A model generated the notes under the pieces. The model did no database searches and was not told the DNA's origin. It saw only the letters and a program-made list of their open reading frames with translations. Of a stretch of DNA of 64,000 nt, positions 14,508-36,652 are shown piece after piece. The DNA lies in sequence record NC_048170.1, one strand, 5' to 3'. Made by a program: the position numbers and the translations under genes. The stretch comes from Escherichia phage vB_EcoM_Goslar. The first letter of the stretch is position 1; each line of letters begins with the position of its first letter.

Positions 14508-15005
14508 TTACGTGTGTCGTCGTTTACCAAAGAAAATGTGGCTATCTACCACGGTGATATTGGTAGCATGTTTTCTGAAATGTTTAGGGCGAAGATGTTT
14601 CGCGTTAAAGAATACGGCTCCTCGTGTTGGGTCGGCTTTATGGTAAGCCGCAATGTCAGTATAACGTAATGTTGCGACCTCTCGTGCTATTGCTCTTGCT
14701 CGCTCAAAAGCAGCACGATCGCGTATGACAATACGCCTTTGTTTTGTCCAGGGGAATTGACCTCTTTGCAGTACGACGTCTTTGACGTTCGTAGGGAATC
14801 GGTAGTCCATAGATCGATTATGTATTAAAAACGCCACGGAGTATTGCCCTTTTACAGATTCGCCTCTGGCTTCCATATACACAGCACATGCGACGATCTC
14901 TTTCCGGCAATCGATTCTAGGTCCTGCGTTCACTGATGCTTGACTGAACGGTGTAATAAGCAACATAACAAGCCCTAAAATCAACGTGTGTAAAATACCT
15001 TGCAT
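14508..15005 (-). CDS. SleB-like cell wall hydrolase with N-terminal signal peptide (candidate endolysin)
   Basis: Signal-like N-terminus MQGILHTLILGLVMLLITPFSQASV; CAVYMEARGES...AFLIHNR...QRGQFPW matches SleB/CwlJ-type hydrolase motifs as recalled. Confidence 0.6.
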   Translation of the reverse strand: MQGILHTLILGLVMLLITPFSQASVNAGPRIDCRKEIVACAVYMEARGESVKGQYSVAFLIHNRSMDYRFPTNVKDVVLQRGQFPWTKQRRIVIRDRAAFERARAIAREVATLRYTDIAAYHKADPTRGAVFFNAKHLRPKHFRKHATNITVVDSHIFFGKRRHT

Positions 15006-16168: not shown

Positions 16169-16310
16169 ATTTTAGAAACACCGCTAACGCGAGTGCGATT
16201 AATAACGCACGTACCCACATACCTCCTTGACAACTGTTATACAACATAAAGACCAGAGCGATGCCGCCCATATGCAGGCGGCACTTATCGAACAGTGTTG
16301 GTTTATACAT
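16140..16310 (-). CDS. small membrane protein (56 aa), below ORF-track length cutoff
   Basis: Hand translation from ATG 16310: MYKPTLFDKCRLHMGGIALVFMLYNSCQGGMWVRALLIALALAVFLKFESSLYQKK, stop TAA at 16142..16140. Confidence 0.35.
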   Translation of the reverse strand: MYKPTLFDKCRLHMGGIALVFMLYNSCQGGMWVRALLIALALAVFLKFESSLYQKK

Positions 16311-16530
16311 AAGAGATTAAACGTTGAATGATTTTTACTTTACCTTTACCTGGGCCTTTCTTGCAGCGATTCAACAGACGGATACGGGTTCGAGTTACCA
16401 CGTCGCCATCATAATCAGCCTGGAACTGTGATAAAAAAGCAGGCTGTATCGGATCGACACCAGGATTGCTATAGAAAGGATTGAGACTTAAAAGAGAGTT
16501 AGCTGGAATCATCGTATTGTCCTTACTCAA
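16303..16530 (-). CDS. small basic protein with K-K-G-P-G-K-G-K motif (family member 1)
   Basis: ...RLLNRCKKGPGKGKVKI; motif shared with 34696..34893, 34920..35126, 35116..35262. Confidence 0.45.
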   Translation of the reverse strand: MSKDNTMIPANSLLSLNPFYSNPGVDPIQPAFLSQFQADYDGDVVTRTRIRLLNRCKKGPGKGKVKIIQRLISYV

Positions 16531-16881
16531 TTATTTACCCAGATAGAGGTATTCACCACCCTGAACAACACCGGTTGCCGGATCGACAAGTATACGAACC
16601 CGTGCGTAGGTCTTGAAAGAGGGGTTGAAAACTTCGAAGTCTGCCACTTTCAATTTCACGCTGGGGTTGGTCGGGTTCTTAACTCCAGGGAGTTCTTTCG
16701 GGGTACCGAAATCAACACCGCATTCTTCAAGGTCTGCTGGTGTCATGCTCTCCATGGCCATGTAGATTGCTTTTGCTTTATCGTAAACTTCTGGGCTATC
16801 CAGCAATCCAGCCTGCGCTGAACCGACAACACTACCGAACAGAATAGCAACAGCAACAAACAATTTAGTTAACGTTTTCAT
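16531..16881 (-). CDS. secreted protein (116 aa, signal peptide)
   Basis: MKTLTKLFVAVAILFGSVVGSAQA-GLLD signal-like N-terminus. Confidence 0.55.
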   Translation of the reverse strand: MKTLTKLFVAVAILFGSVVGSAQAGLLDSPEVYDKAKAIYMAMESMTPADLEECGVDFGTPKELPGVKNPTNPSVKLKVADFEVFNPSFKTYARVRILVDPATGVVQGGEYLYLGK

Positions 16882-31947: not shown

Positions 31948-32405
31948 GATTCGTAACCACCTTCATGCGGTAACGTATTGCTGGTGTCAGGCCAAACGAG
32001 CTGAATACCTGTAACTTTTTTACCATATCGAGCGAAAGCCGCTATCGCATACACTTCGTTGAAGGATTCAATATCCTCTATTTCACGCACGTCAAGACGC
32101 AAGGTTTCACCCGTACCTTTCAGAGTTAGATTGCCATCGAACGCGCCTAACGGGATGGTCTTTGCCTTCACCATGAAGTTACCCAGTTTGTTGATTGCTG
32201 AACCGAGAGCAGGGCAATAACCGGATACGAAGATTTCCGGCATTCCGTGTTCGGTTAGACCAACAGTATACATAAAGCCAGGCTCGTCGCTTCCCTCATC
32301 AGGAGCGACACTGATAATAGCCCACTGCTTTTTCTCGATATATTCTTCGATAAAATCGTCCAGTTTTGAAAAATTGTTTTCATTAAGTTTAACTGTGTTA
32401 CTCAT
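31920..32405 (-). CDS. hypothetical protein (161 aa)
   Basis: ORF track. Confidence 0.45.
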   Translation of the reverse strand: MSNTVKLNENNFSKLDDFIEEYIEKKQWAIISVAPDEGSDEPGFMYTVGLTEHGMPEIFVSGYCPALGSAINKLGNFMVKAKTIPLGAFDGNLTLKGTGETLRLDVREIEDIESFNEVYAIAAFARYGKKVTGIQLVWPDTSNTLPHEGGYESCCCPQILL

Positions 32406-33361: not shown

Positions 33362-33730
33362 TTATTTATCGGGGTCTGGAAAATAGTAAAATCGCCAATG
33401 TAACATAGAAATCGCATTTCTTATTCGATTCGCACGAACACGACGTCCGAGAAAGGACTTGTAGCAAGAATCGCAATCCATAAACAACTCATGGCTCGAT
33501 TTCATCAGAACCACGATGTCTCTTATATACGAATTGCAGTACTCGATAAACGGATCTGTATCGTACGTATATTTCCTCGCACTACCTATCCCCAACTCCC
33601 TATTTAACTCACGACAATTTATCATGAGCTTCACATAACGGATAAGCCGAACGAAGTCACGTAAATTACGATTAAACCAATATCGATACCAAAATGACCG
33701 TATATCCCAAACAGTTCTATTTAACTTCAT
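33362..33730 (-). CDS. hypothetical protein (122 aa)
   Basis: ORF track. Confidence 0.4.
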   Translation of the reverse strand: MKLNRTVWDIRSFWYRYWFNRNLRDFVRLIRYVKLMINCRELNRELGIGSARKYTYDTDPFIEYCNSYIRDIVVLMKSSHELFMDCDSCYKSFLGRRVRANRIRNAISMLHWRFYYFPDPDK

Positions 33731-34361
33731 TGATACCTTCTATTAGTTGTACAGCAACTTCTTTTTCGGTGCTATAAAAGAACTTGCGGTGGAACTGAAC
33801 AAGAAGCTTTTCGAATTTACATTGAACGATCTTTTTGCGTTCGATGTGACCCAGGGAGAGCAAAGCACCCATGCAGCGTACCGCTTGTTCGAGAACCTGT
33901 TTCGCGGTATCGTGATCGTCCGGTAACGGTAAATCTTCCTCGTCATCTTTAGCGATAAGACGTCTAATGATATTATCGATACGTATCTCATCACCGTTAA
34001 TGAAAGCGCCTTTCTCCCATTCATCAAATCGTTGATGGATTCGACGTTGTAAGTTGGCCCTGTCTTCCATTAACTCTTTCAACTGGCTTTCTAAGTTGAA
34101 TACGGTACGGCGGTCGGTATCAGTGAAGTTTTCCGATTCTTTGTACCACCAATCATTACGCGCTTGTAAGTCACTAATGCGAGAAATCGTCCGACGACAC
34201 TCGTTAACAAACGCATCACCGTTCGATAGCTCCGTACCGAAATAGCATTTGTATTTATAACGCATAACGCGGATTAGACGTTTCGCTAGAAAACCTTGCT
34301 TTTCCAGTTTCTTCTTCAATTGCGTGTATTTCTCTTCTTTTGTTTCCGCGATATCTTTCAT
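33717..34361 (-). CDS. hypothetical protein (214 aa)
   Basis: ORF track. Confidence 0.45.
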   Translation of the reverse strand: MKDIAETKEEKYTQLKKKLEKQGFLAKRLIRVMRYKYKCYFGTELSNGDAFVNECRRTISRISDLQARNDWWYKESENFTDTDRRTVFNLESQLKELMEDRANLQRRIHQRFDEWEKGAFINGDEIRIDNIIRRLIAKDDEEDLPLPDDHDTAKQVLEQAVRCMGALLSLGHIERKKIVQCKFEKLLVQFHRKFFYSTEKEVAVQLIEGINEVK

Positions 34362-34708
34362 GCCATATTCTCCGTTATATGCTTTAAACTGTTACGTATA
34401 CTTTTCAATCGACGATTAAATCCGGAACGATAACATTTCCGTACAACCCTTGGCGCTCGCGCTTTATTCGCCTGGTGAAGCTGTTCATTCACCTGCGACG
34501 CTATACGTAAACGTTCTAATAAAGACCTCAACCGAACGACAACCAACGGTTGTTCTTTCACCTTCTCTAGTTTGAGTAAAGAGTCAATATGAAACTTTAT
34601 ATCGATAATCTGATTCCTGTTTTTGCGGTACTGATGAATATACCAGCATCGACGAAAATAGGTGATGCTAAGCATAGGGTGGATCCTCTTCAACGCTATC
34701 TCCAACAA
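34358..34708 (-). CDS. small basic protein (116 aa)
   Basis: ORF track; Arg/Lys-rich. Confidence 0.4.
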   Translation of the reverse strand: MLEIALKRIHPMLSITYFRRCWYIHQYRKNRNQIIDIKFHIDSLLKLEKVKEQPLVVVRLRSLLERLRIASQVNEQLHQANKARAPRVVRKCYRSGFNRRLKSIRNSLKHITENMA

Positions 34709-34893
34709 TACATCGGATTAGGTGCTTTATGGCATTTATAAATACCTACTTTCTTCTGTCTACCTTTACCTGGGCCTCGTTTAACGCGTTTGTTATAAAC
34801 ACGATCCAAATATCGAGTGGCGATAAATCGGGATGAATACACCGGGTCGATATATTCTAGCGTACCTGCTTCTGTCACTTCGAGACATTGCAT
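34696..34893 (-). CDS. small basic protein with K-R-G-P-G-K-G-R motif (family member 2)
   Basis: ...YNKRVKRGPGKGRQKKV. Confidence 0.4.
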   Translation of the reverse strand: MQCLEVTEAGTLEYIDPVYSSRFIATRYLDRVYNKRVKRGPGKGRQKKVGIYKCHKAPNPMYCWR

Positions 34894-34919
34894 TCGTAAC
34901 CTCTCTTTCCTCTAAAAAG

Positions 34920-35126
34920 TCAGTCCAACATAAGCCACGGCATCGCTTTCGCGATAGAATCCACCGCAGCATTTGCGATCCTTCGTTCAGTCGTTGGTAC
35001 CACATGCGCAACAAACCGTTTCCCTTTATTGCAACCTTTCTTGTGTTTTCCTTTGACTAAACGAACACCGATCATGTCGCTGATAACATGATTTAGTATG
35101 TGGCGCTGTAGAGAATTAATCATCAC
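34920..35126 (-). CDS. small basic protein with degenerate K-K-G-x-x-K-G-K motif (family member 3)
   Basis: ...LVKGKHKKGCNKGKRF. Confidence 0.35.
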   Translation of the reverse strand: MMINSLQRHILNHVISDMIGVRLVKGKHKKGCNKGKRFVAHVVPTTERRIANAAVDSIAKAMPWLMLD

Positions 35127-35262
35127 TTTTACTCCAGGCTGAGAAGATTCTCGGTTTTAGTTCTATCTGTCCACATATCCAGGTGTATCTCCATTTACCT
35201 TTACGAGGACCTTTCTTATTTTTAACACCTATCAGAATACGGTAGGGGTACGACCAAGTCAT
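35116..35262 (-). CDS. small basic protein (48 aa) with K-K-G-P-R-K-G-K motif (family member 4), below ORF-track cutoff
   Basis: Hand translation from ATG 35262: MTWSYPYRILIGVKNKKGPRKGKWRYTWICGQIELKPRIFSAWSKSDD, stop at 35118..35116. Confidence 0.3.
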   Translation of the reverse strand: MTWSYPYRILIGVKNKKGPRKGKWRYTWICGQIELKPRIFSAWSKSDD

Positions 35263-35632: not shown

Positions 35633-36652
35633 TTACACCGCCACCTTAGCCTTGATAGCGGGGTGTGATTGATATCCGACGAACACAAAGTCTTCGTAAC
35701 GGTAATCCGTAATACTTTCTGGTTTACGTACGATTGTTAGCTTCGGTAATGGATACGGCTCACGACTAAGTTGTTCTTTAACCTGTTCGAAGTGGTTGTG
35801 ATAGATGTGACAATCTCCACCCGTCCACACGAACTCACCAACGTCCATATTCAGCTGTTGGGCAAGCATGTGTGTCAGCAGTGAATATGATGCGATGTTA
35901 AAGGGAGTCCCTAAAACTGTGTCCTGTGATCTTGCGAGTAGCATGCATGATAAGGCGCGTGTCGGTACGTTGTGTGTATTCAACCAAAGTTCCGTTTCAC
36001 TGTGTCGTACATCATCCGTAACCCACTGGGTTCTTAATACGTCGTTGCGTTGAACATAATCAACACGTTCATCGATCGTGAGCTCGTGGGTATAGAACTG
36101 ATAGAAACTGTGGCATGCGGGAAGCGCCATATCGTCTAAATCACCTACGTTCCATGCGCTAACGATGATCCGTCGAGAATCAGGGTCTTCTTTAAGCTGA
36201 CGCATCACGTTTGCGATTTGGTCGTGGTGTTTAACATACAAGAGATGTTTGACCATACCGGCGTCAACAACACCGCAATACTCATAGCCGCGTTGCATCA
36301 ACTCACGAGTACGTTCTGTATCGTGCGGAACAACCACTTTGTAGTCGATCCATTCCCGCCATTGTTTGCCGTAAATCGGTCCTAGATTCCCTTCTTCGTC
36401 AGCCCATTCATTCCAGATACGAACACCGTTATCTTGAAGATAAGCAACGTTTGTGTCGCCGTTAAGAAACCAGAGCAGTTCGTGGATAACGCTCTTAAGG
36501 TGAATCTTCTTGGTGGTTACCAGCGGGAATCCTTTCTTCAAGTCAAAACGCATCTGACGCCCGAATACGGAACGGGTCCCGGTGCCTGTACGATCAGCTT
36601 TATCGCGACCGTTATCCATGATGTCTTGCAAAAGGTCCAAATACTGTTTCAT
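35633..36652 (-). CDS. thyA: thymidylate synthase (ThyA family) with two insertions
   Basis: [15 protein letters not shown]...[59 protein letters not shown] (catalytic Cys), [25 protein letters not shown]; 339 aa versus about 264 aa for bacterial ThyA. Confidence 0.9.

Follow-up and report, generated by a model that had tools for sequence, protein, structure and literature searches.

We analyzed a 64,000-nucleotide stretch (hereafter the window) of the genome of Escherichia phage vB_EcoM_Goslar (NC_048170.1), a nucleus-forming chimallivirus, and found that four anonymous genes, three of them (c, b and a) lying back to back and the fourth (d) about 18 kb away, belong to one family with a sharply conserved loop, a predicted beta-ribbon, early expression and, as a hypothesis, a role in nucleic-acid binding. 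Sequence comparisons indicate that what defines the family is a single loop in a shared structural context, that the family is restricted to Goslar-like phages and had not previously been described, and that a, b and c are real protein-coding genes. Goslar, a jumbo phage, is a main model for nucleus-forming phages of E. coli, and most of its early genes are without an assigned function. The result is solid but modest, at the level of annotation.

The first-pass annotation of the window had pointed to three open reading frames (ORFs) of one motif family in tandem within 570 nt. The ORF listing and a motif scan reproduced these coordinates exactly: the interval 34696-35262 is filled precisely by a, b and c, and the genes adjoining the cluster are all on the same strand. 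All four proteins are basic, with isoelectric points of 9.8-10.7, and carry the motif [KR][KR]G[PC]xKG[KR] flanked by two hydrophobic strands. In a six-frame scan of the window, the pattern [KR][KR]G..KG[KR] matched a, b, c and d and no other ORF. These four occurrences compare with a mean of 0.015 (maximum 1) in 200 dinucleotide-preserving shuffles of the window, and three of the four fall within 570 nt on one strand. A hidden Markov model (HMM) of the family, run on all six-frame segments of the window, recovered the same four proteins with expectation values (E) between 4e-25 and 4e-20 and no fifth copy, the next best segment having E = 1.2. Each gene is preceded by a Shine-Dalgarno sequence, which is AGGAGG 5 nt before the ATG for c, GGAG upstream of the start for b, GAGAGG 6 nt before the ATG for a, and AAGGA for d, which is also followed by a GC-rich hairpin. 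The stop codon of c overlaps the start of b (GTGATGATTAA), a typical coupled arrangement.

We compared the cluster with 14 related loci, obtained by exact-sequence and homology look-ups from contigs of up to about 250 kb. The order thyA, a 97-residue gene, c, b, a and a 105-residue gene is retained in most of them. The ratio of non-synonymous to synonymous changes per site (pN/pS) was 0.00-0.28 for c and 0.08-0.39 for b against the relatives, and 0.35-0.43 for a against independently retrieved relatives. Synonymous divergence among the relatives reached 0.58, and third codon positions were enriched among the variable sites. The orthologs of a are 73-94% identical and those of b 61-96%, the latter with 23 invariant residues that include the last nine, KAMPWLMLD. 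The conservation check proposed with the first-pass annotation thus showed the cluster and its frames to be kept in the related phages with pN/pS below 1, at 0.04-0.43 overall, and this rules out that the region is non-coding there with no conserved frames.

The same comparison bears on the idea that a, b and c are decaying fragments of a larger repeat-containing gene, or ORFs without function that happen to have stayed open. An overlap such as that between the stop of c and the start of b is what a frameshift split would leave; all three genes are tiny, some relatives do without a, and the similarity between the copies is limited to the motif. However, pN/pS lies well below 1 in all three genes at this level of synonymous divergence, each gene is served by a ribosome-binding site of its own, most of the Goslar-like genomes examined retain the layout of three genes, and the 23 invariant residues of b extend to its very end. 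We consider decay highly improbable.

It could also be asked whether the peptide motif is a by-product of a regulatory, recombination or RNA element acting at the nucleotide level (AAAGGNCCNGGTAAAGGTAAA). In a and d, 16 nucleotides are identical (GGCCCAGGTAAAGGTA), the motif-coding DNA of c hardly varies between the relatives, and the N-terminal swaps described below lie upstream of the motif, which could serve as a recombination anchor. Yet the motif codons of b and a change synonymously (GGG/GGA, TGC/TGT, AAA/AAG and GGT/GGC) while the peptide stays fixed, and codon choice differs among the four copies. At the DNA level, the region holds no repeat other than a motif-coding stretch of 17-33 nt with 73-82% identity, and Rfam gave no match in the window or in three related loci. 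The low pN/pS together with the synonymous variation within the motif argues for selection on the proteins and not on a DNA or RNA element, and makes an explanation at the nucleotide level extremely improbable.

The reading of the cluster as a local tandem duplication, also part of the first-pass annotation, stood in part. The three genes are adjacent, lie on the same strand, share a motif beyond chance and vary in copy number among close relatives, but the similarity covers the motif only and common descent of the whole genes is not proven. In profile-profile alignments with hhalign, the best-supported pair was formed not by cluster neighbors but by a and the distant copy d (E = 2.4e-5 over 35 columns), which share a second element, IDPxYLSRF / IQPAFLSQF. 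The remaining pairs were c-d (E = 1.5e-4, 21 columns), b-c (E = 2.6e-3, 13 columns), b-d (E = 8.8e-3, 12 columns), a-c (E = 0.012, 18 columns) and a-b (E = 0.15, 22 columns), and the profile similarity among a, b and c was confined to the motif (12-22 columns). DNA similarity within the cluster was likewise confined to the short motif-coding stretch (33 nt at 73% for the longest), and neither hhalign nor the DNA comparison revealed significant similarity that extends along most of the tandem genes. Given the adjacency of the genes, an old tandem duplication of a, b and c is the most economical explanation and appears plausible.

The genes could be tied to the published Goslar numbering through protein masses. 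The masses of five window proteins equal those of gp107, gp135, gp141 (thymidylate synthase), gp143 and gp144, each within 0.5 Da, in a virion mass-spectrometry table in which accession numbers and gp numbers run in step (preprint 10.64898/2026.04.21.720040). Because exactly five genes fit between gp135 and gp141, the mass matches and the gene order place a, b and c as gp137, gp138 and gp139, and counting of genes would make d approximately gp102 (Table 1). A fold search of BFVD identified protein c as 100% identical to the 48-residue Goslar protein A0A482GIH2. The first-pass annotation had regarded the small ORFs as lying below or near a 60-residue cutoff and hence as easily missed. The sizes agree with this description, with one protein below 60 residues (c, 48) and two just above (b and a), but the genes were not overlooked: all three are called in most public contigs examined, the RefSeq numbering of Goslar leaves the right number of slots (gp136-gp140), of which a, b and c would occupy gp137-gp139, and c has the UniProt entry given above. 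A literature search found no paper on gp137-139 and no genome-wide fitness screen of Goslar, and the string GPGKGK led to irrelevant papers only. Near the fourth copy, d adjoins a gene whose 116-residue product seems to carry a signal peptide (MKTLTKLFVAVAILFGSVVGSAQA); about 1.3 kb separate d from an endolysin-like gene (PHROG 938, E = 4e-16).

Table 1. Family members and neighboring features in the window (gp numbers of a-d as inferred here)
Feature	Coordinates	Strand	Product	Goslar number	Sequence	Source
Gene c	35116..35262	minus	48 residues	gp139 (inferred)	MTWSYPYRILIGVKNKKGPRKGKWRYTWICGQIELKPRIFSAWSKSDD	ORF listing
Gene b	34920..35126	minus	68 residues from GTG at 35126; 67 residues from ATG at 35123	gp138 (inferred)	MINSLQRHILNHVISDMIGVRLVKGKHKKGCNKGKRFVAHVVPTTERRIANAAVDSIAKAMPWLMLD	
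Gene a	34696..34893	minus	65 residues	gp137 (inferred)	MQCLEVTEAGTLEYIDPVYSSRFIATRYLDRVYNKRVKRGPGKGRQKKVGIYKCHKAPNPMYCWR	ORF listing
Gene d (fourth paralog)	16303..16512	minus	69 residues	about gp102 (by gene counting)	...ADYDGDVVTRTRIRLLNRCKKGPGKGKVKIIQRLISYV	motif scan
gp135	33717..34361			gp135		
thyA	35633-36652		339 residues, thymidylate synthase	gp141		
Gene adjoining d	16531-16881		116 residues			
Endolysin-like gene	14508-15005					

The numbering allowed the genes to be found in published RNA sequencing data of Goslar at 30 min after infection, in which a control was compared with a knockdown of the nuclear-shell protein ChmA (Supplementary Table 2 of preprint 10.1101/2023.09.20.558163). 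Reads for gp137 (a) were 174/222/190 in the control and 87/83/116 in the knockdown (log2 fold change +0.21 to +0.41), those for gp138 (b) 191/219/201 and 100/97/121 (about +0.4), and those for gp139 (c) 62/92/77 and 16/15/48 (-1.0 to +0.4). The read densities of gp137-139 are close to those of gp140 and thyA (gp141), and gp98-104, the range containing d, rose by about 1 log2 unit in the knockdown. Late genes, among them structural genes such as gp5-13 and that of the major capsid protein gp41, dropped by 4-7 log2 units. The transcriptome of the ChmA knockdown resembles that of early infection (10.1101/2023.09.20.558163), and the near-control levels of the family under ChmA knockdown thus assign it to an early, nucleus-independent class. 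Genes a, b and c appear to be co-transcribed with thymidylate synthase within the early gene set. As a separate observation, sigma-70-like promoter matches are depleted between positions 32000 and 38000 of the window (3, where shuffles gave 13.8 +/- 4.5), a deficit in keeping with the use of the RNA polymerases of the phage itself. The window encodes split RNA polymerase beta subunits of the phiKZ type.

An exhaustive HMMER profile search of 1.84 billion representative proteins returned 7 matches, all from Goslar-like phages, and two word-indexed searches covering 5.8 billion proteins found orthologs in Goslar-like contigs only. The orthologs come in part from metagenomes and largely from bacterial isolates (E. 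coli, Salmonella, Shigella sonnei and Enterobacter hormaechei), whose assemblies hold them in contigs of roughly 235-250 kb. The isolate assemblies fit a report in which Goslar-like phages are known from one phage isolate and 59 'persistent' phages in Enterobacteriaceae assemblies (10.1101/2024.12.31.630880). Searches of Pfam, PHROGs and NCBIfam with all members gave nothing better than E = 0.1, and tblastn of c and d against phages gave no match. Megablast of the region against INPHARED phages, PLSDB plasmids and complete E. coli genomes also gave no match, Goslar itself evidently not being in those sets. Thymidylate synthase is about 60% identical to its counterparts in Salmonella phage SPN3US and Erwinia jumbo phages, and the region downstream of thyA in SPN3US contains no family member.

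Within the Goslar-like clade, the content of the cluster varies. One locus (L012) is without gene a (L012:2112-2211), and its downstream 105-residue gene is also cut to 72 residues; in another (L016), a deletion (L016:2501-2740) joins b to an out-of-frame remnant of a. The deletion in one relative and the disruption in another indicate that a is dispensable in nature. In a third locus (L014), b and a are separated by a fifth, divergent member (L014:2725-2877, 50 residues, MREGKGERRLIRYLKESWLPYIIGGRFKTAKYKKGCNKGKVYTIRVFKPR) with a KKGCNKGK loop and its own ribosome-binding site; it was not called as a gene in that contig and, as DNA, resembles none of the other copies. The N-termini also differ, with an extension of about 45 residues on c in L011 and L013. 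Orthologs of d conserve the C-terminal 38 residues behind two unrelated N-termini, giving 69- and 96-residue forms. In the 96-residue variants (P0025, P0026 and P0029) the N-terminus contains RERIRLLVDRKNSDNY, which has the appearance of a degenerate second copy, within the protein, of strand and loop NRIRLLNRRKKGPGKGK.

The cluster sits in a variable region, in which relatives have extra genes beside thyA and thyA itself is interrupted in some. Intact in the window, thyA is split into 249- and 99-residue parts in L005 (132-2260) and L013 (75-2202) by an ORF of 281-284 residues of the GIY-YIG/NUMOD3 type resembling I-TevI. This arrangement is reminiscent of the td intron of phage T4; Rfam detected no group I intron at thyA at its gathering score. 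In L007, thyA (215-2260) contains an intein with a LAGLIDADG domain, giving a 681-residue product. An extra gene of 91-94 residues with a helix-turn-helix-like C-terminus (GMSGKEVAMRYGVTPPCVTQIV) occupies the gap between thyA and the gp140 ortholog in two loci (L009:2038-2313 and L012:1170-1454), and the window is without it.

For the structural basis of the shared motif, we turned to predicted models. The AlphaFold model of c, calculated from a merged alignment, has a mean predicted local distance difference test (pLDDT) score of 76, with values above 90 for residues 11-30. It consists of a strand (residues 3-14), the loop KKGPRKGKW, a second strand (24-35) and a short helix of 7 residues. 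One face of the ribbon, from sequence and model, is lined by Y4, Y6, I8, I10 and V12 on one strand and by W23, Y25 and W27 on the other. The model of b (pLDDT 63) places hairpin strands 21-26 and 36-41 between two helices. Each protein is thus predicted to be built on a two-stranded beta-ribbon with the basic Gly/Pro loop K-K-G-P/C-x-K-G-K/R at its tip.

The ribbon itself comes from the results of prediction tools; that it binds nucleic acid we infer from the basic charge, the Lys/Gly/Pro tip, the shape of the ribbon and its aromatic face. Our tentative proposal, for which the chances seem somewhat short of even, is that a-d are early-acting proteins that would bind nucleic acid through a basic hairpin arm. 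The hairpin lysines would make contact with phosphates, and the Gly-Pro-Gly tip would insert into a groove or, as a wedge, between bases; in c, the aromatic face of the ribbon could stack on exposed bases. HU/IHF arms, Cren7/Sso7d loops, methyl-CpG-binding domain (MBD) hairpins and GRF zinc fingers engage their targets in this manner. The targets of the family would be phage or host DNA or RNA at an early stage of infection, and divergent flanks may give the paralogs different partners or specificities. Two faint pointers are in line with nucleic-acid binding: a weak profile match links the family to the two GRF fingers of NEIL3 (E = 0.14), and MBD domains are the top fold matches for c in the PDB (E of about 0.8).

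Several observations weigh against this proposal. Searches of Pfam, PHROGs and NCBIfam and the fold searches gave no significant match to a characterised nucleic-acid-binding family; Foldseek found no significant match for the b and c models in the PDB (E > 0.7), and for c only the Goslar self-match in BFVD. The alignments behind the models are shallow and come from a single clade, and the b model has low confidence. A two-stranded ribbon of 12 residues is unlikely to be stable as a monomer, and the real form may be an oligomer or a complex. Basic loops can also mediate protein-protein contacts. Finally, none of HOV27_gp136-gp140 is among the virion proteins in the part of Table S4 of the mass-spectrometry study that was examined (10.64898/2026.04.21.720040), where gp135, gp141, gp143 and gp144 are listed, although small lysine-rich proteins give few tryptic peptides; there is thus no evidence for a role in DNA packaging.

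The early-infection vesicle and the phage nucleus exclude host nucleoid proteins. If the family binds phage DNA or RNA in either compartment, it would be relevant to the organisation of a genome kept apart from host nucleoid proteins. By analogy with the HU arm, one could go further and imagine gp102 and gp137-139 as mini-proteins that coat, bend or chaperone the injected genome or early transcripts in the early-infection vesicle or the young nucleus, that is, as a minimal virus-specific chromatin or RNA-chaperone system in which one beta-ribbon was diversified by tandem duplication. We regard this extension as speculative and rather unlikely.

The early transcription of the genes and their restriction to Goslar-like phages would also suit accessory host-takeover or counter-defence proteins that bind protein and not nucleic acid, with the basic hairpin docking on an acidic host factor or defence sensor and an arms race driving expansion, contraction and N-terminal swaps. 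Gene content varies among close relatives as such a model would predict (a lost in L012 and disrupted in L016, a fifth paralog in L014, alternative N-termini of c and d), the surrounding region is variable, with extra genes beside thyA and an endonuclease insert or intein in thyA, and the invariant tail KAMPWLMLD of b resembles a docking peptide. Restriction to the clade and gene turnover suit this model and nucleic-acid binding equally well. However, known anti-defence proteins are more often acidic DNA mimics, and a conserved Lys/Gly loop between strands is more typical of binding to a phosphate backbone. A counter-defence role, which is the main alternative and is also compatible with nucleic-acid binding, seems to us possible but on the unlikely side. 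Should the proteins prove to be counter-defence effectors, it would be instructive to see how they are gained and lost across the roughly 60 Goslar-like 'persistent' phages found in isolates of Enterobacteriaceae.

Several other leads were set aside. Residues 33-67 of b (KGKRFVAHVVPTTERRIANAAVDSIAKAMPWLMLD; window 34920-35020) aligned with residues of about 41-87 of bacterial glutamyl-tRNA synthetases (GluRS) in a profile search of the PDB (E = 0.054), a borderline match that is probably due to chance. Similarity to ribosomal protein S21 (PTTER...) was considered for b and similarity to AP2/integrase-arm domains for c, but no search supported either idea, and both were dropped. A circular permutation linking the C-terminal AKAMPW of b with AKAMW before the hairpin of the long c form was not upheld, as BLASTP aligned only the motif. 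Reading GPGKGK as a Walker A motif (P-loop) fails on the spacing, the lack of Ser/Thr and the strand, instead of a helix, that follows. A precursor peptide of a post-translationally modified natural product does not fit, as there are no modifying enzymes nearby and the loop is without Cys, Ser or Thr.

Among known domains, zf-GRF (PF06839; APE2, NEIL3, TOP3A) resembles the family in having a hydrophobic strand, a K-x-G-P-N-x-G-K/R loop and an aromatic strand, with KKGCNKGKRF as the equivalent in b. GRF fingers form a three-stranded sheet with a basic DNA-binding groove and an F/W on the last strand, and bind single-stranded DNA (PMC9369019). The family proteins could be true but very remote homologs of a known beta-hairpin domain without its zinc ligands, with a zinc-less GRF as the best candidate and AP2/integrase-arm or MBD domains as alternatives. 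The merged profile aligns the motif with both GRF repeats of NEIL3 (7omk_A; RVVRKDGENKGRQFYAC and KIGPNNGKNFFVC). Where GRF has GRxF, b has GKRF with the invariant F37; c contains GKWRY. Genes a and c end in an aromatic-x-W (YCW in a and FSxW at the C-terminus of c), reminiscent of the F/W residues of GRF beta4 (PMC9369019), and d has neither feature. Bacterial topoisomerase I offers a precedent, in that derivatives of its zinc-ribbon DNA-binding repeats do without zinc (PMC9369019). In contrast, the NEIL3 match reaches only E = 0.14 (6.6-7.9 bits per repeat), the Pfam zf-GRF model matched 0 of 20 family members even at E <= 10, the family models show two strands instead of three, and the GRF fingers in Pfam are eukaryotic (PMC9369019). 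None of the zinc ligands (CHCC or C4) is conserved, and no subfamily has an invariant Cys or His: C3, C54 and C63 of a are replaced by Y, S or R, C29 of c by Y, the loop Cys of b by Y or V, and C50 of d by R. The lack of conserved Cys or His indicates that the family proteins are not zinc fingers, and remote homology to such a domain is very unlikely.

In shape, a close analogy to the predicted ribbon is the arm of HU/IHF (PF00216), a long antiparallel two-stranded basic ribbon with a Gly/Pro tip. The c model has 12-residue strands and a KKGPRKG tip, and the likeness is one of shape and not of membership; no family member matched PF00216 in Pfam. The tip proline of HU/IHF wedges into the minor groove of DNA. 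Unlike HU/IHF, the family is without a helical dimerisation body, the c model being only a ribbon with a 7-residue helix, and the tip is KKGPGKGK instead of RNPxTG, with Cys, Tyr or Val in place of the proline in b. The hairpin of MBD, Cren7/Sso7d and the AT-hook are also small modules in which a basic glycine-containing loop contacts DNA. For MBD, the Foldseek matches to c (E of 0.77-3, TM-score of 0.31-0.40, root-mean-square deviation of about 10 Å) provide no evidence of homology and there is no Pfam match; the RGRP core of the AT-hook (PF02178) is absent from the family motif, again with no Pfam match. At the level of genome organisation, the family differs from the small-gene paralog clusters in accessory regions of jumbo phages in being defined by one conserved 8-residue loop with no Pfam, PHROGs or NCBIfam entry. 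It resembles them in being tandem, on one strand, early, lineage-specific and variable in copy number, and this mini-protein family is not a new kind of system.

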